DNA from: Bacteroidota bacterium
Lineage (GTDB): Bacteria > Bacteroidota > Bacteroidia > Bacteroidales > JAHJDW01
Reading direction: 5' to 3'
Assembly: GCA_037139195.1 (NCBI GenBank)
Contig: JBAXGW010000008.1
Coordinates: 29,516 to 93,515, forward strand
Length of the DNA: 64,000 nt
Numbering within the stretch: position 1 is the first letter of the stretch; the number at the start of each line of letters is the position of its first letter. Both the position numbers and the translations under genes were made by a program. A model generated the notes under the pieces. The model was not told the DNA's origin, did no database searches, and saw only the letters and a list, made by a program, of their open reading frames with translations. Shown in pieces: positions 4,342 through 63,786 of the stretch.

Positions 4342-4530
4342 ATATTTATAGTTTTTGGTTCAATGAAATTATTTGTTATTTATTTTATTATGACCCATCT
4401 GCGCTCTGCAAACCAAATAAAACAGGCTAATAAGTGTCTTTCCTTAAATCAGCAAGCTATTTGTTCTTTTTCTAGATAGTCTCCGCTCAGTCTGCGTGAT
4501 TAAAGTCGATGTTTTTCTAAACCCAACATA

Positions 4531-4580
4531 GTGGCTGTTTAGAAACTTCGTAATCGAGACGGAGTTTATGGACAGCCTCT
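4531..4580 (-). mobile_element. MITE-like repeat family B, copy B3 (internally deleted, hairpin-only form)
   Basis: The reverse complement reads AGAGGCTGTCCATAAACTCCGT|CTCGATTACGAAGTTTCTAAACAGCCAC. That is the left end of family B joined to the right end, lacking the central ~75 bp. It begins 2-3 nt after the TAA stop of the FISUMP gene. Confidence 0.7.
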
Positions 4581-4582
4581 AA

Positions 4583-5359
4583 TTAGTCCTTTATACACCT
4601 AATACTAAAACCATAGTTTTTAGGTCCATAATATCTGAAAACAGATGATTTATTGTAATCTAATCCACGATAATAAGCTTCGTTTCCATTTAATGACGAA
4701 GACCACCAAAAGCCAATTTTTGTGGTAGATGGAATACTCCAAACACCATTAAACATACAAGCTCCTCCGCCTTTGGCATTGAAACCACTTTCATTAGTTC
4801 CCCATACAACGTATTTGTCGTACGATTCCGACCAGCCAATTTGTTCTTTTAGTTTATCTCCTTCTTTTGCACCTCTCCAATTAAGCTTATCTAATTCTGA
4901 AGCATTCATTCCCAAAAACAATTCTAATTCTTTCCATTCACTATCGCTTGGTATATGCCATCCATCAGGAGCAAGGTTTCTTGTGTCTTCAACAGCAAAC
5001 CAGTTATACAGATAACCATATTTGCACCCTTTGTAATTCTGTGAATTTGCATCTATATTCTCAATAACACAATATGCACCAGAGTCTGAATTATTCCAGA
5101 AAGCAGTATCAAACATTTGCCCGATTTGAGGCAATTTTATAGTGTCTCCATTTGAATATCTAGAAACTTTTAAATTTTCCGCCATCCACCATTTATTACC
5201 AATCTTAACGGTTTTATAGGTATTGCCATCAATATCGGTCATGGTGCCAGTTTCAATTTTTGTTGTTGCTTTTTCCTTTTTGCAGCCATTGGCAAATACT
5301 ACAAATGCTATTGCAACAAGGATAAAAACGAATGAGCTAAATTTTATTGTATTATTCAT
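4583..5359 (-). CDS. Lipoprotein with a Fibrobacter succinogenes major paralogous (FISUMP) domain
   Basis: The signal peptide ends in a lipobox-like FANGC. Motifs DIDGNTYKTVKIGNKWWMAENLK, YGYLYNW and APDGWHIPSDSEWKELE are characteristic of the FISUMP domain (TIGR02145), recalled from memory. Confidence 0.85.
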   Translation of the reverse strand: MNNTIKFSSFVFILVAIAFVVFANGCKKEKATTKIETGTMTDIDGNTYKTVKIGNKWWMAENLKVSRYSNGDTIKLPQIGQMFDTAFWNNSDSGAYCVIENIDANSQNYKGCKYGYLYNWFAVEDTRNLAPDGWHIPSDSEWKELELFLGMNASELDKLNWRGAKEGDKLKEQIGWSESYDKYVVWGTNESGFNAKGGGACMFNGVWSIPSTTKIGFWWSSSLNGNEAYYRGLDYNKSSVFRYYGPKNYGFSIRCIKD

Positions 5360-5417: not shown

Positions 5418-5575
5418 GTTGCCTTAGGCAACTTTTATATTGCACAGTGTAACACAGTGTTTTATCACAGAGTTTCACTGTTTTCTTGGTTTTCTCTGTG
5501 CAACACTGTGTTTCTACTCTGTGTCACACTGTGTAATTAGAGTGCTTGCTTTAGCAAGCTTTTGCCCCGGAACCC
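5418..5575 (+). repeat. Repeat family A, copy A1 (~158 bp structured CACAGTGT element)
   Basis: The element reads GTTGCCTTAGGCAAC...TGCACAGTGTAACACAGTGTTTTATCACAGAGTTTCACTG...CTCTGTGCAACACTGTG...CTCTGTGTCACACTGTGTAA...GCTTGCTTTAGCAAGC...CCCGGAACCC. It has two terminal mini-hairpins plus long internal inverted repeats. It lies ~20 bp after the P2 stop codon. Confidence 0.85.
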
Positions 5576-20009: not shown

Positions 20010-20545
20010 CTGATACACGGTACATGGTAAATGGTTCACGGTGTTTCCAAATATTAGATTCCGAGTTGTTCGCATATTAACTAGTAAAAAGATATTTGCC
20101 ATGCAAATTTTATTTTAACAAATGTAATAAATTTATCAAATTACTCGTCAACAAAAAAAACCACATAACGCATAGTGTCTTGTCCTAAAAGAGTTCACAT
20201 AAGTTTCTTCGCTTACTTCTACTCCGCTCAGTGACAGTTGCGAAGATTTCATCCGCCGTTTCACGGTTTTCTTTATTACCTTATCTGCTGTTGCCTTAGC
20301 AACTTTTCTTGCACAGTGTAACACCGTGTTTATCACAGAGTTTCATTGTTTTCTTTGTTTTCGCTGTGCAACACTGTGCTTTAACTCTGTGTCACACTGT
20401 GTAAATAAAGCGCTTGCTATAGCAAACTTTTGCTCCGAAACTAACCCTTTTGCGAAGATTCCTGTCCGCCATCAGGTCATCCGTATGGTGTTACCCTGTA
20501 CCGTTCACCTTGCACCTGTCACCTTTTACCGTGCACCTATTATCC
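20010..20545. repeat. Compound repeat island between dtd and rsgA
   Basis: The two arms of a GGT-periodic hairpin module (family D) sit at 20015-20043 and 20487-20537. Between them lie an AT-rich stretch, a degenerate family C module (20209-20245), copy A2 and a TCCGCCATCAGGTCATCCGTATGGTG module (20464-20490). The track ORFs 20148-20336 and 20326-20649 are read out of these repeats. Confidence 0.7.
20290..20447 (+). repeat. Repeat family A, copy A2
   Basis: Collinear with A1 (GTTGCCTTAGCAAC...GCACAGTGTAACACCGTGTTTATCACAGAGTTTCATTG...GTGTCACACTGTGTAAATAAAGCGCTTGCTATAGCAAAC...CCGAAACTAACCC), with roughly 85-90 percent identity by eye. Confidence 0.85.
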
Positions 20546-21611: not shown

Positions 21612-24600
21612 TTATTCCTTAATTATTTTTCGTGTCATTATTCCTTTATCCGTTTTAAGCACTATTGAATAAAACCCTTTTGACAATTTACTACAATCAA
21701 TTGCATATTCCATGCTGCCTTGTGTAAGATTAATGGTTTCATCATTAACTATCTGACCCATTAAATTTAAAATACTTATTTGCATTTCATTTGATTCAAG
21801 AGAAGTGATTAGCAAATTAACTTCATCACTTACTGGATTTGGATATATGCTTACTTGATTAATACCGTCAATTAAATCATCTACATTTGTCATTTGATCA
21901 ATTACAATCAAAATAGAATCTATATCTGTTCCGCAATCATTCACGGCTGTTAACTTTACCCAATATGAGCCTTTTGCAGTGTAATCGTGTATTGGATTAT
22001 TTCCCACGAAGGAAGCTGAACCATCACCAAAATCCCAAGTAAAATCTGTGCCAAAGAAAGTATAGTTATAAAAATGAACATTACTTTGAAATTTTTCGTA
22101 GCTAAAATAAACCTCTGGTTTAGGATCTACCACAATGGTAACAGAATCGGTTGCTTCTTTACATCCATAAAAGTCACTAACTGTAACATTGTAATTTCCA
22201 CTTTCAAAAGCAGATATAATATTTGTTGTTGAGCCTGTAGACCATTCGTAAGTGTGGTAAACTGTGTCGGTTATTAAGTCTACCCTTTCGCCAAAACAAA
22301 TTACTGAAGGACCATTTACTATTATGTAAGGATTTATTTCTGATGAATTTACTACACTATGCAAAGCAGAAATACTTTTGCATCCATTCGCATCTGTAAC
22401 AGTAACGGTATAATTCCCCGTTTGATTAACTGTAATTGTTTGAGTTGTTTCTGCATTCGACCATAAATAGTTCGCAAATCCAGATGGAGCATACAAATGC
22501 ACTGGCGCAGGATTATTATAACAAAATGCAGATGGCGATGATGATGTTATATTTGGTATTATAACTGGGAACACTTGTATAGAAATATTTGAAGTATTTG
22601 TACAGCCTAAATCACTTGTTACTGTTAAACTATAGTTTGTAGATGTAGTTGGATATATTGTTGGATTTGATATTTGACTATTGCTAATCATTCCATTGTT
22701 TGTCCATTGGTAGGTTCCGCCTCCAGTGGCATTTAAAACTAAAGTATCTCCATTGCATAATTGGGTTACGCCTGAAATCTGAATGTTCGGCTTAGGATTT
22801 ACGGTTACTTGAACCATATCAGTATTTGTACATGACGAAGCACCAGTTACAGTTACAACGTACGAACCTGATGAAGTAGGCACAAATGGTACATCTTGAA
22901 CTGCTCCACCGTTCCAAACAGGGTTATTATCACCTATCGCATGGAGTGTAACCGAATTACCAGAACATATAATAATTTCATTTCCTGCTTCAACTATTGG
23001 CTTAGGAATTACGTTAACTATAATATTGTCGGTATTTGTACAACTATTTGCATCTGTTACTGTTACAGTATATGTGTTTGTTGCTGTAGGAAAAAATGCA
23101 AGACCGTTTGTTATTCCATTATTCCATACAGGAGTTCCACCACTAGCGATTAATGTGACACTTGCTCCAATACAAATCGATTGTTCTGCACCTGCTTCTG
23201 CAATAGGCAATGGATTTACTGTTACGGATACTTGACCCGTAACAGTATTAAATCCATCGCTCACTGTAACTGTAAAAACAGTGGAAATAGTTGGTAGCAC
23301 TATTGGATTTTGAATATTTTGATTTGAACCATTAGCAGTCCAGTCATAAGAAGGAGAGGCAGACCACAAATACGAATATAAACCAGAACCACCTGAGGTA
23401 TTTGCATTTAATTGGGTCTGCCCTCCTGTACATAAAATTGAATTGCTAGTATTAGTTATTACGTTTAAAGGACTTCCTGTTATTGATATTACAACAAAAT
23501 CAGAAGCAGTACATCCATTAGCATCGGTAACGGTAAGATTATAGGTTGTATTACTCGACAAATTAGTTGTTTGAGGATTTTCAATATTTGAATTTGATAA
23601 ATACAATGATGGATTCCATTGATAATTATATGTTGGAAGTCCGCCGCTAACTGATGGATCCAATGTGGTATTTGTTCCATTCAAAATAGTTTGATTTCCA
23701 CCAGCATCAACAGTTGGCGTATTAAAAACATTAACAATTGCTGTAGCATCATCTGTACAACCAAATCCATTAGTTACAACTACTGTATATGTGGTGTTTT
23801 GGGCTGGTGATATAATTGGGTTTTGCAAGTTTGAAGTAAAACCAACCGGGTTTGACGTCCAGCTATAGCTTACACCGCCGCCTCCATTTATACTAGTTGT
23901 TAGCCCGTTGCAAATACTTCCACTTGTTGCTGAAGCAGTTGCTGAAGTCATTGGGTTAACCGTTACTATAGCTGTTGCATCATCTGTACAACCAAATCCA
24001 TTTGTTACTACTACTGTATATGTGGTGTTTTGAGTTGGTGATATACTTGGGTTTTGCAAATTTGAAGTAAAACCGACCGGGTTTGATGTCCAGCTATAGC
24101 CTGCACCGCCGCCGCCATTTAAACTAGTTGTTTGTCCATTGCAAATACTTGCACTTGTTGCAGAAGCAGTTGCTGATGACATAGCAGTTACTGTTACTGC
24201 AACAGTTGCATCGTCTGTACAACCAAAGCCATTAGTAACAACAACTGTGTAGGTAGTGTTTTGCGTTGGAGATATTGTTGGATTTTGCAAATTGGAAGTA
24301 AAGCCGACAGGGTTTGATGTCCAACTATAGCTTACGCCACCTCCACCATTTAACGTAGTTGTTTGCCCATTACAAATATTTGAACTAACAGCAGTGGCAG
24401 TTGCCGTGGGGAAACTACTAACATTTAACACAAAATTTTCGGTATCAGAACATCCATTGCCATCAGTTACTTTTAACGTATATGTTGTATTTGCTACAGG
24501 CGAAACTGAAGGATTTTGATTATTGGAATTAAATCCTGCTGGACTTGAGCTCCAAACATAACTACCTCCACCACTTCCACTAAGCACTACAGAATTTCCA

Positions 24601-25577
24601 AGACATAAATTTGGAGAAGCTGAAATAGCAGCAATTGGAGCTGGATTTACATTTATTTGAATTGAATCCATTCTATTGAAATTACAACCATCTTTGTAGC
24701 TCACATAATACGTTGTGGTTACTGGAGGAAATACCGTAGGAGTTATTGAAGTAATATCAGAAATACTGGTATTTGGTGTCCAAAGCACATTTGTTAAATC
24801 AGTACCAGAAAGGTTTAATTCTACCGATTCATTCTGACAAATTGTAGTATTACCATACAAAGCTACAAGCATATTGTTATCAAGGCATACTACTTGCTGA
24901 ACATGATATAAACCAGTAGCACCAGTAAAGCCAAACCATGCTTCGGTAGAGGGAGCAAAAATAGTTCTAATATTATAATTTAAATCTATTCGTAATTCGC
25001 AATCAAAGTATACTTTAAAATTGTTAGTAGCTGGATTCCACGAAATTCTAACTCTATGTGTGTTACCATCTGCAATATTTGTTGTTAAGGTTGTAGCTTG
25101 AACAGGTCCCGCTAAATTACCACCTCCAGTATGATCAGGATTGCCATTTTTTTGTACTGCAATATGGTCAGAAGATAAATCACCAAGCGAACTATTATCA
25201 AAAACATCAAATTCAACTCCTAGAGAAGGCGAAAAACCATCAAAACCCATTCCCTCTCCATCAAGTCCCATTGCAGTATTTCCAACTGTTTGTAAAACGA
25301 AAACCATACCATCAGCAGCAGGGTCGCCACCAGGGTCGCTAAACTGAATGTTAAAGTCAATATCGAATGGCGTATTCATATTGATTTTATTACTATACCA
25401 AATTGTTCCTTTTTGACTATTTAAATTAGGAGTAACATTAAAACAATCGCCTCCAATATGCGAAGCATCACCATTTAACGTATAGGAAGATTGAGCAAAC
25501 AAGAAAGAATTCGCTACATTAAAAAGAAAAACTAGAAATAAACTTATTATTAACTTCAAACTAACTATATTTTTCAT
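21612..25577 (-). CDS. Large T9SS-secreted adhesin-like protein: N-terminal L-type lectin-like domain, many Ig-like repeats, a PKD-like domain and a type A sorting domain
   Basis: 1321 aa with a signal peptide. The lectin-like N-terminus is YTLNGDA...QKGTIWY...ADGMVFVLQ...GVEFDVFDN...DHIAV. There are about 15 Ig-like units with a conserved C..G...L.A.GG..Y.W pattern. The C-terminus is VSIYPNPVSDEVNLLI...GFYSIVL. Confidence 0.88.
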   Translation of the reverse strand: MKNIVSLKLIISLFLVFLFNVANSFLFAQSSYTLNGDASHIGGDCFNVTPNLNSQKGTIWYSNKINMNTPFDIDFNIQFSDPGGDPAADGMVFVLQTVGNTAMGLDGEGMGFDGFSPSLGVEFDVFDNSSLGDLSSDHIAVQKNGNPDHTGGGNLAGPVQATTLTTNIADGNTHRVRISWNPATNNFKVYFDCELRIDLNYNIRTIFAPSTEAWFGFTGATGLYHVQQVVCLDNNMLVALYGNTTICQNESVELNLSGTDLTNVLWTPNTSISDITSITPTVFPPVTTTYYVSYKDGCNFNRMDSIQINVNPAPIAAISASPNLCLGNSVVLSGSGGGSYVWSSSPAGFNSNNQNPSVSPVANTTYTLKVTDGNGCSDTENFVLNVSSFPTATATAVSSNICNGQTTTLNGGGGVSYSWTSNPVGFTSNLQNPTISPTQNTTYTVVVTNGFGCTDDATVAVTVTAMSSATASATSASICNGQTTSLNGGGGAGYSWTSNPVGFTSNLQNPSISPTQNTTYTVVVTNGFGCTDDATAIVTVNPMTSATASATSGSICNGLTTSINGGGGVSYSWTSNPVGFTSNLQNPIISPAQNTTYTVVVTNGFGCTDDATAIVNVFNTPTVDAGGNQTILNGTNTTLDPSVSGGLPTYNYQWNPSLYLSNSNIENPQTTNLSSNTTYNLTVTDANGCTASDFVVISITGSPLNVITNTSNSILCTGGQTQLNANTSGGSGLYSYLWSASPSYDWTANGSNQNIQNPIVLPTISTVFTVTVSDGFNTVTGQVSVTVNPLPIAEAGAEQSICIGASVTLIASGGTPVWNNGITNGLAFFPTATNTYTVTVTDANSCTNTDNIIVNVIPKPIVEAGNEIIICSGNSVTLHAIGDNNPVWNGGAVQDVPFVPTSSGSYVVTVTGASSCTNTDMVQVTVNPKPNIQISGVTQLCNGDTLVLNATGGGTYQWTNNGMISNSQISNPTIYPTTSTNYSLTVTSDLGCTNTSNISIQVFPVIIPNITSSSPSAFCYNNPAPVHLYAPSGFANYLWSNAETTQTITVNQTGNYTVTVTDANGCKSISALHSVVNSSEINPYIIVNGPSVICFGERVDLITDTVYHTYEWSTGSTTNIISAFESGNYNVTVSDFYGCKEATDSVTIVVDPKPEVYFSYEKFQSNVHFYNYTFFGTDFTWDFGDGSASFVGNNPIHDYTAKGSYWVKLTAVNDCGTDIDSILIVIDQMTNVDDLIDGINQVSIYPNPVSDEVNLLITSLESNEMQISILNLMGQIVNDETINLTQGSMEYAIDCSKLSKGFYSIVLKTDKGIMTRKIIKE
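23730..24420 (-). repeat. Three near-identical ~231-bp (77-aa) tandem coding repeats inside the lectin/Ig adhesin gene
   Basis: The protein units share ICNGQTT.LNGGGG..YSWTSNPVGFTSNLQNP.ISP.QNTTYTVVVTNGFGCTDDAT three times. Confidence 0.8.
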
Positions 25578-26782: not shown

Positions 26783-26874
26783 AAAACACAATTCAAAATA
26801 GACATCATTTAAAGATTGTGATCTTTTGAATTTCTAGTTAGTGTTTGTCCATATAGTCGGCGTTTTTCAATAAT

Positions 26875-27003
26875 CAGCCTAGTGACTGTTTAGAAACTTC
26901 TTAATCGTAGCGAATAAAGTGTTAAAATTGAGAAGTTTACGTTTGCAAATTACTCAAGGGCAACACAACTTCAACGATGAGTATGGAGTTTATTGACAGA
27001 CTC
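26875..27003 (-). mobile_element. MITE-like repeat family B, copy B2
   Basis: The reverse complement reads GAGTCTGTCAATAAACTCCATACTCATCGTTGAAGTTGTGTTGCCCTTGAG...CGATTAAGAAGTTTCTAAACAGTCACTAGGCTG and is collinear with B1. Its first G (complement of 27003) completes the TAG stop of the DUF4249 gene. Confidence 0.8.
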
Positions 27004-27848
27004 TAGTTAGGGACAACTCCTTTTGCAATAGTAACATCAGAAGCATTGAACCAACCTAAACCACCGTTAGAAATATTAGTTTTAACATTTGCTGGCGGTC
27101 CACCAATTCCACCTTGATTCCATCGAGTTTCTATCATAAAGCTAATGATAAAATCGAAATAACCTTTTGTGGCTGAAATAGTCTCAACAGTGATAGTATC
27201 ACCAGGCAAAGCTGCCCCTGCAAAAATAGTAAATCCAGGCAAGTAGTTTCCATTTACCATATTATCATCTGAAAAAGCCAATTCATCAAGTGTATCTGAT
27301 TCAAGTATGCCATTTTTGTAATATTTCCAAACATAATAATCGCCAGTTGTTGATGGCTCCTGCCCCCAGCCATTTATTGCATAAATTGGCGGATATTTTA
27401 TACTATCAATTAGTTCAAATGAAATTGTGTCTAATGTTAGCACAGGTTTTAGCAAATCAGAAGCTGTATATTCTTCAGTTTTTCCATTTTTATCAATATC
27501 AACATTCGTTATTTTCAAAGTATAGGTTCTTCCAGCAATACCTTTAACATTTGCATCGGTATAATAAATACCTGAATTAGAAGGAATTTCAGTTAAAGGA
27601 AAAACATTTCCTAAATTATCGCTTATTGTAACTGTTGCACCACTAACTACAGGAGCAACTTGATTGTAGAAATAACTAGAAGACTCAGTAATAATAACTT
27701 TATGGGCTTTTGTTTCTGTGGTTATAGAACCTTCTACAACAATTCTTTTGTCCGAATCTTTAAGCTTAATATCTATCCGTTCTTCGCAAGAAGTAAAAAC
27801 AAAAATAGCAATTAAAAAAAGACAAATATTTATATAATAAGATTTCAT
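27003..27848 (-). CDS. DUF4249-like lipoprotein, partner of the upstream TonB-dependent receptor
   Basis: The lipoprotein signal ends FTSC, followed by RIVVEGSITTE as is typical of DUF4249. The start lies 13 bp after the TBDR stop. Confidence 0.7.
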   Translation of the reverse strand: MKSYYINICLFLIAIFVFTSCEERIDIKLKDSDKRIVVEGSITTETKAHKVIITESSSYFYNQVAPVVSGATVTISDNLGNVFPLTEIPSNSGIYYTDANVKGIAGRTYTLKITNVDIDKNGKTEEYTASDLLKPVLTLDTISFELIDSIKYPPIYAINGWGQEPSTTGDYYVWKYYKNGILESDTLDELAFSDDNMVNGNYLPGFTIFAGAALPGDTITVETISATKGYFDFIISFMIETRWNQGGIGGPPANVKTNISNGGLGWFNASDVTIAKGVVPN

Positions 27849-47487: not shown

Positions 47488-50400
47488 TTATAATAGTATT
47501 GTAACGCTTCCCGATTTTTGATATTTAACAGAATGGTAATCTGCGTAATCAATAATATAATAATATGTTCCAGATGGGCAAATGTTTCCATTCATTCTTC
47601 CATCCCAACCATTTTCTATGTCGTTAGATTCATATATCTTTTGACCCCATCTATTAAAAATATAAATAGTAAAAGCAGAAATATTTTGAGCAACTACTCT
47701 AAAATTATCATTTTTGTTATCGCCATTAGGAGTGAAGCAATTTGGAATAAACATGTCTGAAAAACAACTATCAATTAATACTATTGTATCGCTGCTTTTA
47801 CATCCATTATTATCAGTCACGCTTAGCGAATACGAATTAGCACTATTCGCTATTATTTCAGCGGTAGTATTTCCCGTCGACCATAAATAGCTTGCATATA
47901 TGTCAGGGACATTAATAATTATATTATCTATACAACCTGTGAAATCGTTCCCAAGGTTTATACTTGGCATTGATAAGTAAGATAAGTTAATGCTATCAAT
48001 TGCAGTTCCACATAAAGCAGATGAAACTGTAACGCTGTAATTACCAGCAGCTGAAACTGAAATAATTGGAGTTGTTTCTTGAGTAGACCAGTAGTAATTA
48101 TAATTTGTATTACCTGCATTTAATAATGTTGAATTTCCTTCACAAATTGAGACGTCAGCGCCAAGATTAACTGTTGGTATTGGTTCAACAGAAACAGTCG
48201 CCATAGCCGAGCTTGAACAATTGTTTGCGGTTCCTGTTACATAATAAGTAGTGTTTGCATTTGGGGAAACAGTAATAGTGCTATTTCCTGAATAACCAGC
48301 CCAAATATACGTTGTTGCACCTGCAATATCGCTTATTGCATTTAAATCTATAGAAGATCCTTGGCAAATACTTGGAGAATTTGGCAATATGCTAATTGTT
48401 GGTATCGGATTAACTGTAACAACTACATCGGCCGTATTTGAACATCCATTTAACCCAATTACAGCAACAATATAAGTTGTTGTTATTGTTGGATTAACGA
48501 TAGGATTAGAAATTAATGAGTTCGCTAATCCTATAGTTGGGCTCCAAGAATAGCTATTACCACCTGAAGCAGATAAATTTGCAGAATTTCCCTTGCATAT
48601 TGAGATTGGAGCGCTTACATTGATATTTGGAGGTGTATTATTTAATGAAACTAATACACTATCAGTTGCAAAACATCCGTTGTTTGAGTTTGTAACAGTC
48701 AAAACATAAGTCCCACTAAGGTTAACAACTGGTGATTTTGTAAGTTCCCCAAAAAGAATTGAACCTGACCAAGAATAATCTATTCCTGTACCTGATTCAG
48801 AAAGTGTTCCATCTAAAACTACAGAAGGAATTAAACAAGTTATTGTTTTATCTGGTCCAGCTTCTGCAAGTGGAATTATTTTATTTACTGCTATTACTAC
48901 ATTGTCAGTGGCAGTACAAAGACTTAAACTATTTGTGGTTGTAACAGTATATGTAGTAGTTGCAGTAGGTGTTGCAGTAGGGTTTGAAATTGAAGAACTA
49001 CTTAAGTCAGAAGTAGGATTCCAAATATAAGTATAAGCTGTATTATTAGTTGCTCCAATTGTTATACCACTCAAATTTTGCGTACAAGTAATTGTTCCAG
49101 CATTTCCTGCTTCAGAAATTGGCAAAATCTTATCAACAGTAACAATAACATTATCAGTACTTGAACAACCATTAGCCGTTGTGGTGGTTGTAACCGTATA
49201 AGTTGTAGTTGCCGTAGGGTTTGCATTAGGATTGGAAAGTGTAGGGCTGCTTAAACCTAAAGAAGGATTCCATAAGTACGTTTGTGCCACCAAATTTGCA
49301 GCTCCTATCACTAATCCATTTGTATTTTGTATGCAAGTAATTGTTCCTGCGTTCCCAGCTTCTGATATTGGTAAAACTTTATCAACAGAAACAATAACAT
49401 TATCAGTAGCTGTACATCCATTTGAATTTGATGTTGTAGTAACTATATATGTTGTAGTTGCAGTAGGCGTTGCTATAGGATTTGAAATAGTAGAATTGGT
49501 TAAGTCAGATGTTGGATTCCAAATATAAGTATAAGCTGTATTATTCGTTGCTCCAATTGAGACTCCACTTAAATTTTGCGTACAAGTAATTGTTCCTGCA
49601 TTTCCAGCTTCGGAATTTGGCAAAATCTTATCAACAGTAATAACTACATTATCAGAACTTGAACACCCATTAGCAGTTGTTGTAGTTGTAACAGTATATG
49701 TAGTAGTTGCAGTAGGTGTAGCAACAGGATTTGGAATAGTAGAATTGCTTAAATCAGAAGAAGGATTCCAAATATAAGTATAAGCTGTATTATTTGTTGT
49801 TCCAATGGAAACTCCACTTAAATTTTGAGTACAAGTAATTGTTCCAGCATTTCCTGCTTCAGAAATTGGCAAAATCTTATCAACAGTAACAATAACATTA
49901 TCAGTACTTGAACAACCATTAGCCGTTGTGGTGGTTGTAACCGTATAAGTTGTAGTTGCCGTAGGGTTTGCATTAGGATTGGAAAGTGTAGGGCTGCTTA
50001 AACCTAAAGAAGGATTCCATAAGTACGTTTGTGCCACCAAATTTGCAGCTCCTATCACTAATCCATTTGTATTTTGTATGCAAGTAATTGTTCCTGCGTT
50101 CCCAGCTTCTGATATTGGTAAAACTTTATCAAAAGTAATAACTACATTATCTGAACTTGAACACCCATTAGCAGTTGATGTAGTTGTAACCGTATAAGTT
50201 GTAGTTGCAGTAGGTGTTGCAGTAGGGTTTGAAATAGAAGAACTACTTAAGTCAGAAGTTGGATTCCAAATATAAGTATATGCAGCATTATTAGTTGTTC
50301 CAATTGTTATTCCACTTAAATTTTGTGTACAAGTAATCGTTCCAGCTGAGCCTGCTTCAGAAGAAGGAAGTGTTTTGTTAACAGTAACAACTACATTATC

Positions 50401-51819
50401 TGTAGCAGTACATCCTGTAGAGGTTGTGGTGCAGGTGACTGTATAAGTGGTGCTTGTAACTGGATTTGCCGTTGGACTTGAAACGACAGAATTACTTAAT
50501 CCAGCTACTGGACTCCAAGAATAAGTTTTCGCAGGATCATTTGCTTCTCCAATAGCTATTCCACTTGTATTTTGTATGCAAGTTATAGTTCCTGCGGCTC
50601 CTGCTTCTACTGAACATGTTATACAAGAACTTGGAGCATTGTAAGATGTAGTTTTAGTACAAGTTGTTGCTGAAAAGGAAGCAGTAATATTATGCGAAGC
50701 ACCATCAGAAGTTAATCCAGTTAGTGTAAAGGCTTGAGGGCTGTTGAAAGGAGGGTTAAAAGTTTGAGAATGACCATTACCATCTGAAACGGTCAGAGTT
50801 CCTGTTGTTGGTGGGTTATTAAAAGTAATTGAGCCTGAAACAGAATATTGATTATTTGTAGTATTACATGCAGAAGGATTAGCAGTAAGTGCTGAAATAT
50901 CGCATGGAATTACAATGCTACAATCGGTTGCTCCTGCTCCAACACCTGAATTAGTTTGGTTGAAAGTTATATTTGAAGCCACATTAGCATAATTTGCAAT
51001 GCACAGTAAATAATACTGTCCAATAGTAGCATTATTAATATAACAATTCTCAGTTGCGTCTATACTAAAGCTGCAATCAACAATGTTTGTTCCCGCAGGA
51101 GGAGGTGTATGAGGATTATTCATACTTGTATAACTATTATCATCTAATCCAGCAATGCAATTGCTAGTTGGATTTGTAAATGGTCCCCAGCAAATAAAAT
51201 CAACATCGTTTCCGCCATTAGAGCCTTGACTTGAAATATTTATTACGATGTTTCCTGCAGTTCCAATTTTCAAATAATAATATGCAGGATTATCAAAAAT
51301 TCCACAGCCCGCACCATAAGGAAATTCAGATGCTGCATTTGTAGAAGCCGGGTAAGTTATTGGTAAGCCTGTGCAAAATGGACCAGCACCAGCACAAATG
51401 CTTGGGTCTAATGTAATACAAGATATTGCAGCAACCCAGCCTGCTCTTGCTGTTGTTGCATCTGATGTAAATTTAAATGTTAAACATCCTGTAGTTGAAT
51501 TTACAGCAAAAGGAGTATTTCCAGAGTAAGTTCCTATTACTGTTGCAGAAGTTGAATTTCCATCATAAACTGTTAGAATGTCTAAATTTGCTTGTGTGTT
51601 AAAAGTTGTAAAATCAAACTTTATTTGATCTCCAGGCGTTGACGAGCAAAAGGTCATTGTGTATGACTCATTGTTAGTGTAATTTGCAGTTGTCCCTGAA
51701 TCATAAAATGTACCAGCGCAAGTACTTACAGATCCGCCAGTGCTTATTTTATATGTTTGAGCATTAATTGTATTAAAGCCCAATATCGTTATTGCTAAAA
51801 ATGTGTATAGCTGTTTCAT
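47488..51819 (-). CDS. Giant type-B T9SS substrate: CUB-like N-terminal domain, tandem ~83-aa Ig-like repeats and a gliding-motility-associated C-terminal domain
   Basis: 1443 aa with a signal peptide. CUB-like region: CAGTFYDSG...ILTVYDGNS...FKFTSDATTARAGW. The repeats have the pattern EAGNAGTITC.QN..G..IG......YTYIWNP. C-terminus: IPNCFTPNGDNKNDNFRVV...GWDGRMNG...GTYYYII. Confidence 0.92.
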   Translation of the reverse strand: MKQLYTFLAITILGFNTINAQTYKISTGGSVSTCAGTFYDSGTTANYTNNESYTMTFCSSTPGDQIKFDFTTFNTQANLDILTVYDGNSTSATVIGTYSGNTPFAVNSTTGCLTFKFTSDATTARAGWVAAISCITLDPSICAGAGPFCTGLPITYPASTNAASEFPYGAGCGIFDNPAYYYLKIGTAGNIVINISSQGSNGGNDVDFICWGPFTNPTSNCIAGLDDNSYTSMNNPHTPPPAGTNIVDCSFSIDATENCYINNATIGQYYLLCIANYANVASNITFNQTNSGVGAGATDCSIVIPCDISALTANPSACNTTNNQYSVSGSITFNNPPTTGTLTVSDGNGHSQTFNPPFNSPQAFTLTGLTSDGASHNITASFSATTCTKTTSYNAPSSCITCSVEAGAAGTITCIQNTSGIAIGEANDPAKTYSWSPVAGLSNSVVSSPTANPVTSTTYTVTCTTTSTGCTATDNVVVTVNKTLPSSEAGSAGTITCTQNLSGITIGTTNNAAYTYIWNPTSDLSSSSISNPTATPTATTTYTVTTTSTANGCSSSDNVVITFDKVLPISEAGNAGTITCIQNTNGLVIGAANLVAQTYLWNPSLGLSSPTLSNPNANPTATTTYTVTTTTTANGCSSTDNVIVTVDKILPISEAGNAGTITCTQNLSGVSIGTTNNTAYTYIWNPSSDLSNSTIPNPVATPTATTTYTVTTTTTANGCSSSDNVVITVDKILPNSEAGNAGTITCTQNLSGVSIGATNNTAYTYIWNPTSDLTNSTISNPIATPTATTTYIVTTTSNSNGCTATDNVIVSVDKVLPISEAGNAGTITCIQNTNGLVIGAANLVAQTYLWNPSLGLSSPTLSNPNANPTATTTYTVTTTTTANGCSSTDNVIVTVDKILPISEAGNAGTITCTQNLSGITIGATNNTAYTYIWNPTSDLSSSSISNPTATPTATTTYTVTTTNSLSLCTATDNVVIAVNKIIPLAEAGPDKTITCLIPSVVLDGTLSESGTGIDYSWSGSILFGELTKSPVVNLSGTYVLTVTNSNNGCFATDSVLVSLNNTPPNINVSAPISICKGNSANLSASGGNSYSWSPTIGLANSLISNPIVNPTITTTYIVAVIGLNGCSNTADVVVTVNPIPTISILPNSPSICQGSSIDLNAISDIAGATTYIWAGYSGNSTITVSPNANTTYYVTGTANNCSSSAMATVSVEPIPTVNLGADVSICEGNSTLLNAGNTNYNYYWSTQETTPIISVSAAGNYSVTVSSALCGTAIDSINLSYLSMPSINLGNDFTGCIDNIIINVPDIYASYLWSTGNTTAEIIANSANSYSLSVTDNNGCKSSDTIVLIDSCFSDMFIPNCFTPNGDNKNDNFRVVAQNISAFTIYIFNRWGQKIYESNDIENGWDGRMNGNICPSGTYYYIIDYADYHSVKYQKSGSVTILL
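48860..50620 (-). repeat. Intragenic tandem coding repeats (~249 bp / 83 aa units) with a 747-bp higher-order duplication
   Basis: The 304-bp blocks 49082-49385 and 49829-50132 appear identical base for base on reading (offset 747 bp, or three units). This also explains the identical antisense track ORFs starting MESVGLLKPKEGFHKYV. Confidence 0.85.
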
Positions 51820-53322: not shown

Positions 53323-55710
53323 ATGACAAAATTTAAAATACTAATAAGTTTTTTGTTGTTACTATTGTTTTATGTAACCACAAATGCTCAGACAATTAAA
53401 GGCAGAGTAGTTGAAATAGGAGACAAAAAAGAAAAACTTGCAATTGCAGGAGCTACAGTTGTTTGGATTGGAACAACACATGGAATAGGAACAGATTCTG
53501 ACGGATACTTTCAAATTTCAAAAAGTGGAATTTCGGACCAAAGATTGGTTGTTAGTTTTTTGGGCTATAAAAATGACACAATACCTGTTAAAAAAGAAGA
53601 TGTTTACTTTGAAATTGTTATTGTACCATCATCTACTCAATTAAAAGGTGTTGTAATATCCGAAAATGCAGGCAGTTATATATCAAAAATGGATCCACGA
53701 AAGGTTGAAAATATAACTACTGGCGAGTTATATCGAGCCGCGTGTTGTAATCTTTCCGAGAGTTTTGAGACAAATGCATCAGTTGATGTATCGTATAGCG
53801 ATGCCATAACTGGTGCAAAACAAATTCAAATGCTTGGATTATCTGGAATATATAGTCAATTGCAAACCGAAAATATTCCTTTGCTTCGTGGAATGGCTTC
53901 TACTTATGGCTTAAATTATATTCCGGGCTCTTGGATGGAATCTATACAAATTTCTAAAGGGACATCTTCGGTAGTTAACGGATACGAATCAATTACAGGT
54001 CAGATAAATGTTGAATATAAAAAGCCTGCTACTAGCGACAAGCTATTTGTGAATATTTATGCTAATGAGCATCAACGAATGGAAGCGAATGTGAATGTGG
54101 CTCATAATTTCTCCGAAAAATTTAGCACAATGCTTATGCTTCATGGCGATGACTTTCAAAATAAAATAAACAATGTAAATACAACACAAATAAATTCGGG
54201 AGGTCAAAAAGTTACTATGCCCGAAAACTTCATGGATTTGCCTTTGCTTCGCACGCTAAGTATTTTCAATCGTTGGGATTATATCAACAAAGGAAAATAT
54301 GTTTCACGCTTCGGTATTAAATATATGAAAGAAGATAGAACTGGAGGAACAATAGATTTTAATAAAAATACATTTGAGCTTGATACGGCAAAAATTAATG
54401 CAAAAACTTTACCGTATGGATTTGGCTTAAAAACCGAACGTGCCGAAGCATTTTGGAAAAATGGAATTATGTTTGCCAACAAACCTTATAAAAGTATAGG
54501 ATTAATTGTTTCGGCTGTTTCACATAATCAAAGTGGTTTTTTTGGAGTTAATAATTATAGTGGACACGAACAAAGTTTATATGCAAATTTGATTTATCAG
54601 TCGATAATAAATAATACAAACCACAAGTTTAGCACTGGTTTTAGCTATTTGTATGATAAATATAGAGAAGCTTATGACCAAACTCAATTCCGATATATTT
54701 ATCAGGTTGCAACGTATTTGCCAGGTGAAGCCGCTTCAATGCATGATATAACTTCACTTTATGATTATAAGCGAGTAAAATACAATTGGGATAGAACAGA
54801 GTCGGTACCTGGTGCTTTCTTCGAATATACGTATACTCCATCTGCTAAATTTACTGCAATTGCTGGAATACGTGCTGATTATCATAATAAATATGGTGCT
54901 TTTGTAACTCCTCGCATAAATTTAAAATACAAAATAGATTCAACTACTATTATCAGGGGTTCTGCTGGTTTAGGCTACAGAACAGCCAATATCATTGCAG
55001 AAAACATGTCGATACTAGCTAGTCAACGAATAATTGAAGTAGTTGGAAATTTAGATCAAGAAAAAGCAATTAATTTTGGTGTTAATTTGAGTAAGTCGTT
55101 CAAACTTTTTACTCGCAAAGCAGAATTTGATGTAGATGTGTATCGTACAAATTTCATGAATCAAGTGGTTGTAGATATGGATAAAGACCCAACAACAGTG
55201 TATTTTTATAATTTAGATGGAAAATCGTATGCTAATAGCTATCAAGTGCAGGTTTCGTTCGATCCTTTTAAAAGATTTACTACATTATTAGCATTTAGGA
55301 TTAATGATGCAAAATCATCTTCAGATGGAATTGTTCAGCCAAAGCTTTTGCAAAACAAATATAAAGGTTTGGTTTCGTTATCTTATGAAACAAAATACGA
55401 TAAATGGAAATTTGATTTAACAACTCAAATTATTGGACCAGCAAGAATTTCGCCTCAAAGCAAAATGCCCGAAATTGTTCGCCGTGATTACCAAACAACA
55501 CCTATTTACAGTTTGGTAAATGCACAAATAACTCGAAAATTCAAATATTTTTCTGTATATTTAGGTGCAGAAAATGCATTAAATTATAAACAAAAAGATC
55601 CAATAACCGAACCTTTCATTCCGTATCATACTCATTTTGACACAACAATGGCTTGGGGTCCAATTATTGGAAGAACAGTATATGCAGGATTTAGGTTTTC
55701 AATTAAATAG
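53323..55710 (+). CDS. TonB-dependent receptor with a CarboxypepD_reg domain and a double-Cys plug motif
   Basis: 795 aa with a signal peptide. Contains IKGRVVE...GATVVWIGTTHGIGTDSDGYFQI. Plug: LYRAACCNLSESFETNASVDVSYSDAITGAKQIQMLGLSG. Barrel ends YAGFRFSIK. Confidence 0.9.
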   Translation: MTKFKILISFLLLLLFYVTTNAQTIKGRVVEIGDKKEKLAIAGATVVWIGTTHGIGTDSDGYFQISKSGISDQRLVVSFLGYKNDTIPVKKEDVYFEIVIVPSSTQLKGVVISENAGSYISKMDPRKVENITTGELYRAACCNLSESFETNASVDVSYSDAITGAKQIQMLGLSGIYSQLQTENIPLLRGMASTYGLNYIPGSWMESIQISKGTSSVVNGYESITGQINVEYKKPATSDKLFVNIYANEHQRMEANVNVAHNFSEKFSTMLMLHGDDFQNKINNVNTTQINSGGQKVTMPENFMDLPLLRTLSIFNRWDYINKGKYVSRFGIKYMKEDRTGGTIDFNKNTFELDTAKINAKTLPYGFGLKTERAEAFWKNGIMFANKPYKSIGLIVSAVSHNQSGFFGVNNYSGHEQSLYANLIYQSIINNTNHKFSTGFSYLYDKYREAYDQTQFRYIYQVATYLPGEAASMHDITSLYDYKRVKYNWDRTESVPGAFFEYTYTPSAKFTAIAGIRADYHNKYGAFVTPRINLKYKIDSTTIIRGSAGLGYRTANIIAENMSILASQRIIEVVGNLDQEKAINFGVNLSKSFKLFTRKAEFDVDVYRTNFMNQVVVDMDKDPTTVYFYNLDGKSYANSYQVQVSFDPFKRFTTLLAFRINDAKSSSDGIVQPKLLQNKYKGLVSLSYETKYDKWKFDLTTQIIGPARISPQSKMPEIVRRDYQTTPIYSLVNAQITRKFKYFSVYLGAENALNYKQKDPITEPFIPYHTHFDTTMAWGPIIGRTVYAGFRFSIK

Positions 55711-55832
55711 AGTCTGTCCATAAACTCCGTACTCATCGTTGAAGTCGTGTTGCTCTTGAGTCATTTACAAACGTAAACTCCTCAATTTCAACACTTCCTT
55801 CGCCTCGATTACGAAGTCTATGAACAGCCTCT
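55710..55832 (+). mobile_element. MITE-like repeat family B, copy B1 (~123 bp, imperfect terminal inverted repeats)
   Basis: The element reads GAGTCTGTCCATAAACTCCGT...CGATTACGAAGTCTATGAACAGCCTCT. Its ends are inverted repeats (AGAGTCTGTCCATAAAC versus the complement of GTCTATGAACAGCCTCT). Its first G completes the TAG stop of the TBDR gene (55708-55710). By eye it is ~88 percent identical to B2. Confidence 0.8.
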
Positions 55833-55881
55833 GTTGCGTTTGAAAAATATATTGACCTTATAGACAAATACGAAATAGATT

Positions 55882-58077
55882 ATGTCAAATATAAAATTAA
55901 ATATAAAAGTTTCAGGTATGTCATGCGCCTCATGTTCAATGAGTGTGCAGACAATACTTGAACATATACCTGGCGTAAAATCTGCATTTGTTAATCTAGC
56001 TATGAATACAGTGCTTATTCATTATGACGATGAGAAAACTTCTCTTTTTGAAATGAAGAAAGAACTCAAGAAAGCTGAATTTGATTTAATTTTGAATGAT
56101 GAATATCAGACAGTAGAGAAATTAAGATTGAAAAAATTAAAATATCGCCTTTATGTTTCGATAGTATTTTCTTTGCCAATATTTGTGCTTTCTATGTTTT
56201 TTATGCATAGCATCGAAAATCTTCATAGCATCCTGCTAGTACTTTCAATCCCAGTAATTTTCTTTTCTGGAAAGGATTTCTATATTGCTGCTTATAAAAA
56301 AGCAAAGCAACTTTCGGCTAATATGGATACATTGGTGGCATTAAGCACTGGAATTGCATTTGTTTATAGTGCTTTTAATACATTGTTTCCCTATGCTTTT
56401 GAAGGAATGGGGACAGAAGTGTATTTTGAATCTTCAACTGTAATTATTACGTTAATTATTGTTGGAAAATTTTTAGAAGAAAGAGCAAAATCAAATGCTT
56501 CAGCTGCAATTAAGAAGCTAATAAGCATTCAAACAAAAACGATTTCGGTTACAAGAAAAGATACGCAAATAGAAATTGGAATTTCCGAAGTTAAAAAAAA
56601 TGATGTTGTGCAGGTTAAGCCAGGCGATATAATTCCAGTAGATGGAATAATTTTATCAGGGATATCAAGCATAGATGAAAGTTCTATTTCCGGAGAGCCT
56701 ATTCCAAAAGATAAATCTGAAGGAGATAAAGTTTTTTCTGGAACTATCAATCAAAATGGGGTATTAATTATTAAAGCCACCACAGCAGGAAGCAATACCG
56801 TGTTGTCTCAAATTATTGAGCAAATAGAATCGTCACAATACAGCCGACCACCGATTCAAAAATTAGTTGATAAAGTTTCTTCATGGTTTGTGCCAACAGT
56901 ATTGGTTTTGAGCATTATAACTTTTTGCTTATGGTATATTTTTGGACCCGAACCCGTTTTGCATTATTCTATGTTAACTGCAATTTCGGTATTAATTATT
57001 GCTTGTCCTTGTGCACTTGGATTAGCAACTCCAACTGCATTAACAGTTGGAATTGGCAAGGGTGCTGAAAATGGCATATTGATAAAAGACGCACAGAGCT
57101 TAGAATTAGCAAATAAAATTAATATAATTGCCATGGATAAAACTGGAACGCTTACAGAAGGCATTCCATCTATTACTAGAGGCGAATTTTTGAGTCATAC
57201 AAATTCAGATTTCTATGCTGCTATAATTTTTTCAATTGAAAATAAGTCGTCGCATCCTATTGCAAAGGCTTTAACTCAATATTTAAGTCTAAACTATACT
57301 GATATTCCTGAAATTACAGTAATTCAAAATATTCCGGGCATGGGAACTGTTGCCGATTTTAATAATGCAAAATATTTAATAGGCAATCTAAAATTAATGA
57401 TGGCGAATAATATTCAAGTTCCTTCAGAAATTATTGACAATGAAATTAATGATAGTACCAAAGTTTATTTTGCAGAAAATCAGAGTCTTATTGCATATTT
57501 TGAAATAGAAGATATTTTAAAGTTAGAAAGCATTAGTGCAATCAATTCATTAAAAAAGCTAGGTATTGAAATAGTAATGTTGACAGGTGATAGCGAAAAT
57601 TCTGCTGCAAAAATCGCTAAGAAATTGGGCATTAACAGGTATTTTGCAGGAATTCTTCCTACAGAAAAGGTTGATTATATTAAACAACTTCAAATGAATA
57701 ACAATGTAGTAGCAATGGTTGGCGATGGAATAAATGATGCAGCTGCCATGAGTCAAGCTAATTTAAGTTTTGCTATGGCTACTGGTGCTGATATTGCTAA
57801 AGAAAGCGCAGGTATAACATTGCTTCGATCTAATATTACAGATGTTTACAAATCAATAATTTTGTCACGCTATATTTTAAAGATTATTAAGCAAAATTTA
57901 TTTTGGGCTTTTGCTTATAATGTGCTTTCAATACCAATAGCAGCAGGTGTTTTATTTGCTTCCACTGGTTTGTTGCTAAGTCCTATGATAGCTGGAGCTG
58001 CAATGGCAATGAGTTCAGTGTCGGTAGTTTCTAATAGTCTTAGAATTAAAAATTTAAATATGAAACCAATATCCTGA
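55882..58077 (+). CDS. copA: Copper(I)/silver-translocating P1B-type ATPase
   Basis: N-terminal HMA motif GMSCASCS, TM CPC motif (IACPCALGLATP), DKTGTLT, GDGINDA, YNVLSIPIAAG and MAMSSVSVVSNS. This motif set is the P1B-1 (Cu+/Ag+) signature in the Arguello classification. Confidence 0.93.
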   Translation: MSNIKLNIKVSGMSCASCSMSVQTILEHIPGVKSAFVNLAMNTVLIHYDDEKTSLFEMKKELKKAEFDLILNDEYQTVEKLRLKKLKYRLYVSIVFSLPIFVLSMFFMHSIENLHSILLVLSIPVIFFSGKDFYIAAYKKAKQLSANMDTLVALSTGIAFVYSAFNTLFPYAFEGMGTEVYFESSTVIITLIIVGKFLEERAKSNASAAIKKLISIQTKTISVTRKDTQIEIGISEVKKNDVVQVKPGDIIPVDGIILSGISSIDESSISGEPIPKDKSEGDKVFSGTINQNGVLIIKATTAGSNTVLSQIIEQIESSQYSRPPIQKLVDKVSSWFVPTVLVLSIITFCLWYIFGPEPVLHYSMLTAISVLIIACPCALGLATPTALTVGIGKGAENGILIKDAQSLELANKINIIAMDKTGTLTEGIPSITRGEFLSHTNSDFYAAIIFSIENKSSHPIAKALTQYLSLNYTDIPEITVIQNIPGMGTVADFNNAKYLIGNLKLMMANNIQVPSEIIDNEINDSTKVYFAENQSLIAYFEIEDILKLESISAINSLKKLGIEIVMLTGDSENSAAKIAKKLGINRYFAGILPTEKVDYIKQLQMNNNVVAMVGDGINDAAAMSQANLSFAMATGADIAKESAGITLLRSNITDVYKSIILSRYILKIIKQNLFWAFAYNVLSIPIAAGVLFASTGLLLSPMIAGAAMAMSSVSVVSNSLRIKNLNMKPIS

Positions 58078-58109
58078 AATAATTATATAAATCTTAAAAC
58101 TATGAATAT

Positions 58110-58322
58110 ATGGAAATTTTAAAATTCAAAACCACTATTAAATGCAATGGATGTTTGAGTAAAGTGGAAAAACCATTAAATAATTTTAGCGAAATTAAAA
58201 ATTGGGATGTAGATTTAAACAATCCCGATAGAATTCTAACAGTTGAAGCTGATAATGATATATCAGAGCAAATAATCGAAGAATTAGAAAAACTAGATTT
58301 TGAAATAGAAAAAATTAACTAA
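58110..58322 (+). CDS. Small HMA-domain metallochaperone-like protein (CopZ-like)
   Basis: 70 aa with a CNGC motif near the N-terminus and a beta-alpha-beta-beta-alpha-beta-like pattern. It lies directly after copA. Confidence 0.75.
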   Translation: MEILKFKTTIKCNGCLSKVEKPLNNFSEIKNWDVDLNNPDRILTVEADNDISEQIIEELEKLDFEIEKIN

Positions 58323-58336
58323 ATAAATTTTAAATT

Positions 58337-58699
58337 ATGAAAACACTAAAAACAATTGTATTATCTTTTTTGTTATTTTCTTTTGGCTTATTTGGCTGTG
58401 CACAAACTGCAGGAACTGTAGAAAAAACGTTTAAAACATCTGGACAGTGTGGCATGTGCAAGGACCGAATTGAAAAAATGCTTGCGTATGAAAAAGGCAT
58501 TGTATCATCAGATTTCAATGTTGAAACAAAGGAATTAACCGTAAAATACAAATCGAACAAAACGAATGAAGCAGAAATAAAAAAAGCTGTTAGCAAGCTA
58601 GGTTACGACATTGACGATGTTATGGGCGACCAAGTAGCTTATGAAAAATTGCCTCCTTGTTGCAAAAAACCAAGCGATCCAAATCATGTAAAACATTAA
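58337..58699 (+). CDS. HMA-domain lipoprotein with a Cys-rich C-terminal tail
   Basis: Lipobox LFGC, HMA motif GQCGMCKDRIEKML, and tail LPPCCKKPSDPNHVKH. A terminator follows at 58708-58746. Confidence 0.8.
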   Translation: MKTLKTIVLSFLLFSFGLFGCAQTAGTVEKTFKTSGQCGMCKDRIEKMLAYEKGIVSSDFNVETKELTVKYKSNKTNEAEIKKAVSKLGYDIDDVMGDQVAYEKLPPCCKKPSDPNHVKH

Positions 58700-58789: not shown

Positions 58790-58834
58790 CTTCGACTACG
58801 CTCAGTCTGACAGTCACTCTGAGCGTTGTCGAAG
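58790..58834. repeat. Repeat family C hairpin (copy C1)
   Basis: CTTCGACTACGCTCAG-TCTGACAGTCACT-CTGAGCGTTGTCGAAG has 16-nt arms with one mismatch. Confidence 0.8.
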
Positions 58835-63741: not shown

Positions 63742-63786
63742 CTTCGATTTTGCTCAGAGGGACTGTCAGACTGAGCTTAGTCGAAG
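63742..63786. repeat. Repeat family C hairpin (copy C2), 7 nt after the RND-OMF stop codon
   Basis: CTTCGATTTTGCTCAG-AGGGACTGTCAGA-CTGAGCTTAGTCGAAG. Its loop is the reverse complement of the C1 loop. Confidence 0.8.

Follow-up and report, generated by a model that had tools for sequence, protein, structure and literature searches.

The repeat family B, present in three copies (B1, B2 and B3) in the window, the whole 64-kb stretch of DNA that was analysed, is on its terminal repeats, target-site duplications, size and copy number a MITE of an ISNCY-family insertion sequence (IS), ISRm17-like and IS5-related. All three copies start on a stop codon or just past one. We consider it likely that this location arises mainly from the TA-NN-TA target of a MITE that has since decayed. 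Family B is an ordinary mobile-element relic and no new stop-codon device.

The three homologous copies lie where an initial annotation of the window had placed them. Identity between B1 and B2 is 85% over 129 nt (86% over 124 nt in a second comparison), and B3 is an internally deleted copy in which about 75 nt of the core are missing. The left terminal repeat is 19 nt long, GAGTCTGTCCATAAACTCC, and a search of the window with this 19-mer gives three matches at three or fewer mismatches, where 0.01 are expected. The right ends of the initial annotation are wrong: homology between the copies runs on beyond them to an outer repeat, of which 12-14 of 17 positions agree with the family consensus. 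The true right end is about 40 nt further out in B1 and B2, and about 95 nt further out in B3, where it is the probable end, placed by a 13/17 match. What had been taken for the right end is an inner right-end-like repeat, no worse a fit to the right-end consensus (13/17) than the outer repeat. The architecture is therefore one left end followed by two tandem right ends, inner and outer, and 9 of the 18 consensus matches in the window fall within the three elements. The part that was first delimited is an imperfect palindrome. The copies measure 146-163 bp, number three in the 64 kb and carry no transposase gene (Table 1).

At these outer ends the copies are bounded by 6-bp direct repeats: TAACTA/TAACTA for B2, TAAATA/GAAATA for B1 and TAATTA/TTATTA for B3. 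In B1 and in B3 only five of the six positions agree between left and right repeat. We also considered whether a TAANTAG that is conserved ahead of each copy is a part of the element, and discarded this: it consists of the target-site duplication and the element's first G.

Table 1. Coordinates of the family B copies, their parts and their host genes in the window. Gene names are Pfam labels.
Feature	Position	Strand	Remark
TonB-dependent receptor gene	53323..55710	+	stop overlaps B1 insertion site
B1 left target-site duplication, TAAATA	55704..55709	+	final TA + G55710 = TAG stop of receptor gene
B1 full element, 162 bp	55710..55871	+	
B1 left terminal repeat	55710-55728	+	
B1 inner right-end-like repeat	55815-55831	+	right end in initial annotation
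B1 outer right terminal repeat	55855-55871	+	
B1 right target-site duplication, GAAATA	55872..55877	+	5/6 vs left copy
DUF4249 gene	27003..27848	-	stop overlaps B2 insertion site
B2 left target-site duplication, TAACTA	27004..27009	-	TA + G27003 = TAG stop of DUF4249 gene
B2 full element, 163 bp	26841..27003	-	
B2 left repeat	27003-26985	-	
B2 inner right-end-like repeat	26898-26882	-	
B2 outer right repeat	26857-26841	-	
B2 right target-site duplication, TAACTA	26835..26840	-	6/6 vs left copy; then G
Fib_succ_major-domain gene	4583..5359	-	stop inside B3 target-site duplication
B3 left target-site duplication, TAATTA	4580..4585	-	bases 1-3 = TAA stop of Fib_succ_major gene
B3 element, 146 bp	4434..4579	-	
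B3 left repeat	4579-4561	-	
B3 inner repeat	4547-4531	-	
B3 extra segment, ~55 nt	about 4451-4505	-	
B3 probable outer right repeat	4450-4434	-	13/17 consensus match
B3 probable right target-site duplication, TTATTA	4428..4433	-	5/6

The terminal repeat connects family B to a complete insertion sequence. The 19-nt repeat is identical to one end of a 1.62-kb IS in a Spirochaetota metagenome-assembled genome (MAG; locus L016, ends at 802 and 2422) and matches the other end at 18 of 19 positions. The 465-aa open reading frame of this IS matches the ISNCY_1 model NF033593 at 368 bits, where the cut-off is 325, and also PF01609, and on these profile matches we assign its product to the ISNCY-family, IS5-related DDE transposases. 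The nearest named IS is ISRm17 (34% identity), which has the ends GTGCCCATCCATAAAC and is flanked by a 7-bp duplication, TAGCCTA. Family B and ISRm17 have the end motif ...TCCATAAAC in common, and both make a TA...TA duplication, of 6 bp in family B and of 7 bp (TA-NNN-TA) in ISRm17. The L016 type also agrees, with its 1.62 kb, 6-7 bp duplication and TA|G ends, with the traits that the ISfinder tables give for the ISDol1 subgroup of ISNCY: 1.6-1.9 kb, a duplication of 6-7 bp and ends TAG. We treat this agreement as a lead only. A literature search on ISDol1, ISNCY MITEs and stop-codon MITEs in Bacteroidetes yielded nothing usable.

The 19-nt repeat of family B also bounds dozens of MITEs in other phyla, mostly of 133 bp. 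When genome contigs were scanned with the 19-mer, it matched at 26 loci, of which no more than about 4-5 are true family members and the others single chance matches; the members include L016 and two loci with 133-bp MITEs of the same end (L014 and L023). Family B is close to these MITEs in size, but has one left and two tandem right ends, and its interior is unrelated to theirs save for the second, inner copy of the end repeat. Its internal sequence was absent from 78 metagenome loci, from about 5 kb past the window ends and from about 50 kb of the nearest relatives' loci, and scans of viral contigs, with two internal patterns and with the terminal repeat, gave no match. Unlike the ISNCY-family IS, family B has no transposase in the readable part (about 70 kb) of its genome. 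As had been stated before, the window has none of this family (no tblastn match with the L016-type transposase), and no autonomous copy was found in roughly 70 kb of the source genome. The homologues of this transposase number more than 2,600, chiefly on contigs of about 1.6-2 kb. Family B resides in a Bacteroidota MAG, and its 19-nt end is shared with carriers in the Spirochaetota, Nitrospirota and Thermodesulfovibrionia; this points to an IS family that moves horizontally and is very widespread, its transposase having thousands of homologues in metagenomes.

The relatives also define the target. In a metagenome scan of 78 loci with 75 unique ends, whose pattern itself fixed TA at positions -2/-1, TA is found at -6/-5 in 72 of the 75 ends and Y at -7 in 63. 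Among 34 complete relatives, the 6-bp duplication is perfect in 22 and 5/6 in a further 10, and the right duplication copy is followed by R in 18/22. From these counts we read the family target as Y-TA-NN-TA-R, with the central 6 bp duplicated.

Such a target meets stop codons readily. The first bases of B1 and B2, G55710 and G27003, are the third bases of the TAG stops of the receptor and DUF4249 genes, and B3 starts 3 nt past the stop of the Fib_succ_major gene, a TAA. Relative to its upstream gene, each of the three copies points the same way; both the starts and the orientation are as first described. It had also been claimed that these TAG stops are chimeras of host TA and element G. The G does belong to the element, but the element did not create the stop: the right duplications of both B1 and B2 are followed by G, so the empty sites already read TAG and the element's G merely replaced a G. 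The reconstructed empty sites, AAA TAG ATT ATG for B1 and AAC TAG AAA for B2, keep the TAG, and the predicted empty-site sequences are ...ATTAAATAGATTATG... and ...CCTAACTAGAAATTC.... After the right duplication of B1, G ATT ATG leads into the start of a P-type ATPase gene, and B1 went into the gap of 3 nt that separates the receptor gene from this ATPase gene.

The C-termini of the host proteins are unchanged. Orthologues at 66% identity end alike, in ...RFSIK for the receptor and in ...IPN for the DUF4249 protein. In two receptor orthologues (L114 and L115) the stop lies within an unoccupied T-TAAATA-A site, and the downstream gene follows 24-36 nt past the receptor stop, compared with 171 nt here. 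With the nearest relatives at about 66% protein identity, this comparison is one of C-termini, stop context and spacing. The elements are present in all four other assemblies of these loci.

We propose that an ISNCY-family transposase, one that is not encoded in the window and acts in trans, would recognize the terminal repeat GAGTCTGTCCATAAACTCC and insert at the roughly palindromic Y-TA-NN-TA-R, duplicating the central 6 bp. The unit that moved in the source genome is about 162 bp long, with one left end and the inner and outer right-end copies. A target with TA-R and TA-N often coincides with TAA and TAG stops ahead of A/T-rich sequence. Because of the element's initial G and the 6-bp duplication, a TAG or TAA always stays intact when a copy lands on it, and the protein does not change. 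These three features, the TA-R of the target, the stop-preserving duplication and the initial G, offer a simple and general reason for harmless landing on stops. Insertions within genes would be purged by selection, and this purging, together with the overlap between target and stops, would account for the surviving copies on stop codons. The copies are presumably old and inactive.

An alternative is that family B homes specifically to the stop codons or the 3′ ends of genes, or that its transcribed hairpin is retained as a 3′ UTR stabilizer or terminator. We think this unlikely. Under a uniform choice among the non-coding target sites of this AT-rich window, three of three copies on stops has a probability of about 0.002-0.015, and one about four-fold lower when the shared orientation is counted, a result that favours homing or retention but comes from only three copies. 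The target consensus by itself, however, places 13-24% of permissible sites on stops (16/123 of the non-coding TANNTA sites in the window and 11/45 of the non-coding YTANNTAR sites). The related MITEs elsewhere show no clear excess: stops hold 3 of their 17 non-coding insertions, where 9.6% is expected, and there is no orientation bias. They avoid long open reading frames, which hold 4 of their 21 insertions but 67% of TANNTA sites. Some extra bias or selection toward stops, beyond the site model, is possible. The targeting of stop codons that was first suggested holds in so far as target choice contributes, and finds no support as a general bias toward stops.

The sense RNA of B1 folds strongly over the stretch first delimited (-42.5 kcal/mol, z = -7.4), as a retained hairpin would. 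Its antisense strand folds better still (-60.6 kcal/mol), and the hairpin of B2 is no better than shuffled sequence (RNA fold -29.1 kcal/mol, z = -1.9; DNA-fold z = -0.6). With the B2 hairpin at background and the B3 core lost, the structure is not being maintained. No terminator-like sites, a G+C-rich hairpin followed by a T-run, were found at the elements, and the idea that the copies are kept as terminators is not supported by these results. Nothing in Rfam matched at the gathering threshold; a mir-986 match at 19.9 bits, where the cut-off is 70, was dismissed as hairpin noise. The right part of B1 contains no Bacteroidetes-type promoter motifs by eye, and a sigma-70 scan was at background level. 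Family B resembles REP-like and terminator hairpins in being a hairpin-forming repeat straight after genes, but it has IS-shared terminal inverted repeats and copy-specific duplications, lacks a T-run, and its hairpin differs between copies.

A more far-reaching idea is that family B, or the whole IS family in A/T-rich genomes, might be a ‘stop-codon-safe’ transposon that prefers stops and always rebuilds TAG. Such elements could build up at the 3′ ends of genes, all pointing one way, with a co-transcribed hairpin that may modulate the 3′ ends of mRNAs or uncouple neighbouring genes; B1 would be an example. We regard this as a long shot.

It is less probable again that the inner 123-bp unit is the true MITE, and that the extension of about 40 nt with its outer repeat belongs to a separate, older repeat that was hit each time. 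The 123 bp are near the family-typical 133 bp, the inner repeat is as good a match to the right-end consensus (13/17) as its outer counterpart, and head-to-tail MITE pairs with one common duplication are known at two loci (L046 and L089). Yet the duplications, which are specific to each copy (TAACTA, TAAATA and TAATTA), bound the composite and not the inner unit, so the composite was the last unit to transpose. A nested origin of the composite's ancestor is possible.

The ISNCY assignment also replaces the original reading of family B as an IS630/Tc1-mariner-derived MITE of 123-129 bp with a TA target duplication, to which we now give almost no credence: TA does precede all three copies and follows the originally delimited right end in two of them, but the copies stay homologous past that end, where the TA lies inside a longer unit bounded by 6-bp repeats; what follows the inner repeat (TAGGCT, TATGTT and TGTTGC) does not match the left flanks; 6-bp TANNTA duplications, perfect or at 5/6, also flank 32 of the 34 complete relatives; and an ISNCY/IS5-related IS has the identical terminal repeat, a PF01609/NF033593 transposase being all that the autonomous elements found with such ends encode. 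The annotation is corrected to composite MITEs of 146-163 bp, ISNCY/IS5-related and with a 6-bp TANNTA duplication, in place of mariner-type TA duplicators. TA-duplicating MITEs of bacteria include those of IS630/Tc1-mariner type and the Correia/NEMIS and ERIC elements. Family B is like them a small, palindromic, non-coding repeat beside TA in transcribed intergenic DNA, but differs in duplicating the 6 bp TANNTA and in having the repeats of a different transposase family.

Three copies of a repeat family, family B, are present in the window, as homology and end matches bear out for the positions given in the initial annotation. B1 and B2 share 85% identity over 129 nt (86% over 124 nt in a second comparison), and the 19-mer GAGTCTGTCCATAAACTCC is matched three times in the window at up to 3 mismatches, against 0.01 expected. 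Each copy lies downstream of a real gene (see the table). The third base of the TAG stop is G55710 for the TonB-dependent receptor and G27003 for the DUF4249 gene, while B3 starts 3 nt past the TAA stop of the Fib_succ_major-domain gene.

The stretch originally delimited is a long imperfect palindrome, and a copy-to-copy comparison reveals that the homology runs on beyond its right end. Another right-end repeat, oriented like this inner one, is found about 25 nt further out in B1 and B2 and about 80 nt further out in B3; the table scores these outer repeats against AGTTTATGGACAGACAC, the right-end consensus of the family. In all three copies the hexamer in front of the left end recurs immediately beyond the outer right end. 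There is no such repeat of the left flank after the inner repeats, where the hexamers are TAGGCT, TATGTT and TGTTGC. In the whole window the end consensus has 18 matches with at most 5 mismatches, nine of them contributed by the three elements, three ends apiece; shuffled windows contain 10-22 scattered matches. The outer repeats and flanking duplications thus define a transposed unit of 162 bp in B1, 163 bp in B2 and 146 bp in B3, with a single left end and a tandem pair of right ends in every copy.

Family B elements, their outer right repeats and duplications, and the upstream genes (matches are to the right-end consensus or between duplication copies)
Feature	Position	Strand	Sequence	Match	Remark
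B1	from 55710	+			present where first placed
B2	from 27003	-			present where first placed
B3	from 4579	-			both ends kept, ~75 nt of core missing
B1 outer right repeat	55855-55871		ACCTTATAGACAAATAC	12/17	
B2 outer right repeat	26857-26841		ACTATATGGACAAACAC	14/17	
B3 outer right repeat	4450-4434		GATTTAAGGAAAGACAC	13/17	
B1 target-site duplication			TAAATA...GAAATA	5/6	
B2 target-site duplication			TAACTA...TAACTA	6/6	
B3 target-site duplication			TAATTA...TTATTA	5/6	
TonB-dependent receptor gene	53323-55710				real gene upstream of B1
DUF4249 protein gene	27003-27848				real gene upstream of B2
Fib_succ_major-domain protein gene	4583-5359				real gene upstream of B3

The double right end could stem from a nested or head-to-tail pair of elements, followed by a deletion. 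Two metagenome loci, L046 (around 42-190) and L089 (around 1028-1180), host head-to-tail MITE pairs with one common 6-bp duplication and a right flank of TAATTAGAGTCT or TATTTAGAGTCT; this type of arrangement could produce duplicated-end elements such as family B. B3 also has roughly 55 nt (4451-4505) with no counterpart in B1 or B2. An 11-nt stretch of this segment, CGCTCAGTCTG (4484-4494), matches the palindromic repeat at 58790/63742. The segment may have arisen by nesting of a small repeat, or it may be ancestral and have disappeared from both B1 and B2.

When 185,579 species genomes, the source MAG not among them, were scanned for the left repeat, most matches were due to chance and a few were real. 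A 1.62-kb element in a Spirochaetota MAG (L016) has the family B repeat at its two ends, each perfect over 18 nt, and encodes a 465-aa ISNCY-family transposase (NF033593, 368 bits against a cut-off of 325) that also matches PF01609 and, more weakly, the IS5 and IS1182 models. MITEs of 133 bp with family B ends occur in Nitrospira (L014) and Thermodesulfovibrionia (L023). Over 2,600 homologues of this transposase are found at E <= 1e-30. Most lie on contigs of about 1.6-2 kb, which would be expected of a repeated IS. Among plasmids the nearest named IS is ISRm17 (34% identity), with ends GTGCCCATCCATAAAC and a 7-bp TAGCCTA duplication. The end motif and a TA...TA duplication (7 bp in ISRm17, 6 bp in family B) are thus traits of the whole family. 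The ISDol1 subgroup of ISfinder, with lengths of 1.6-1.9 kb, 6-7 bp duplications and TAG ends, would fit these data. Family B is a real repeat family, and its copies are MITEs derived from an ISNCY/IS5-related IS.

The 19-nt end is common to Spirochaetota, Nitrospirota, Thermodesulfovibrionia and this Bacteroidota MAG (L016, L014, L023, L005 and the 78 metagenome loci L032-L109). The transposase of its IS has close homologues in the thousands, and the 133-bp MITE is abundant. Many contigs carrying this end terminate inside the repeat.

The target site was characterized with a metagenome scan for the pattern TAGAGKCTGTCMATAAACTCC, in which TA at -2/-1 is fixed by the pattern and all other positions are independent. 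The scan gave 78 loci with 75 unique ends; TA is found at -6/-5 in 72 of the 75, and C or T at -7 in 63. There are 34 complete elements, 27 of them 132-133 bp long, and the 6-bp duplication is perfect in 22 and 5/6 in a further 10. A purine follows the right copy of the duplication in 18/22. The target is, as read from these ends, Y-TA-NN-TA-R with a 6-bp duplication. This rules out the TA duplication and IS630 origin proposed in the initial annotation, whose observation of three copies placed at stop codons stands.

How, then, do the copies come to lie on stop codons? The target has TA-N and TA-R on both strands, and so it readily coincides with TAA or TAG before A/T-rich DNA. Because of the 6-bp duplication and the G with which the element begins, a stop overlapping the target is always rebuilt (TAG/TAA), leaving the protein unchanged. 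Reconstructed from the duplications, the empty site of B1 reads ...ATT AAA TAG ATT ATG..., with the receptor stop 3 nt before the start of the P-type ATPase gene, and that of B2 reads ...CCT AAC TAG AAA.... TAG thus predates both insertions, the G of the element having only replaced a flanking G. In agreement with a pre-existing stop, thirty-odd receptor homologues end in ...R(F/Y)xIK, as does the window protein; the closest DUF4249 homologue ends in ...IPN (...VPN in the window); and the receptor gene of two relatives, at 66% identity, ends ATT AAA TAA within an unoccupied T-TAAATA-A site, with a heavy-metal-associated (HMA) domain gene 24-36 nt further on, compared with 171 nt in the window. 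No true empty site was found, as the databases hold no close relatives of the source MAG.

The receptor is directly followed by HMA genes in the window (53323-58699; a P-type ATPase and two HMA proteins) and in the relatives at 66% identity (L114, 4001-6781; L115, 680-3448). The arrangement resembles a conserved neighbourhood for metal uptake or efflux, into which B1 was inserted.

In the window, which is 33% G+C, 16/123 non-coding TANNTA sites and 11/45 non-coding 8-bp consensus sites overlap a stop, so the chance of all three copies doing so is about 0.002-0.015, or roughly four-fold less when their common orientation is counted. We compared this with the wider family, using 21 complete MITEs that have flanks of at least 300 nt. 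Fourteen are intergenic, 3 are on stops and 4 are in long ORFs, while 67% of all TANNTA sites in these loci are in long ORFs and 9.6% of the non-coding ones are on stops. The wider family has therefore been filtered out of genes, with no clear stop or orientation bias. A modest extra stop bias may exist in family B, with its three post hoc copies, but is not needed as an explanation; the stop-codon position follows largely from the target sequence combined with purifying selection.

The alternative, that the elements are retained as 3' UTR hairpins or terminators, draws on the B1 sense RNA, which folds at -42.5 kcal/mol (z = -7.4). However, the non-transcribed strand of B1 folds better (-60.6 kcal/mol), B2 RNA reaches only -29.1 kcal/mol (z = -1.9; z = -0.6 as DNA), i.e. 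its hairpin has decayed to background stability, and B3 has lost the core. A search for terminator-like sites found none, and family B has no match in Rfam. Nothing supports an exapted role. Divergence between copies of about 14%, imperfect duplications and degenerate right ends indicate that the copies are old and probably immobile. No autonomous copy was found in the roughly 70 kb covered of this uncultured Bacteroidota MAG. L111, from an independent assembly of this organism, begins at position 41 of the B1 element, a break inside B1 that suggests further family B copies elsewhere in the genome.

The window hosts other repeats. A second family (5461-5573 and 20329-20441; 113 nt, 88% identity, direct orientation) has many CACAGTGT motifs, and both copies are closely downstream of minus-strand gene stops (5596 and 20546). 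A 45-nt palindromic repeat, CTTCGACTACGCTCAGTCTGACAGTCACTCTGAGCGTTGTCGAAG, occurs twice in inverted orientation (58790-58834 and 63742-63786), both times 3' of genes and once 7 nt past a stop at 63735; it may be a family of REP-like or terminator hairpins. Two large ORFs contain tandem repeats, one (47488-51819) with a 249-nt unit (48933-50608, 6-7 copies) and the other (21612-25577) with a 231-nt unit (23727-24419, 3 copies); in the latter, Por_Secre_tail and PKD Pfam matches indicate that the repeats are probably Ig/PKD-type domain repeats.
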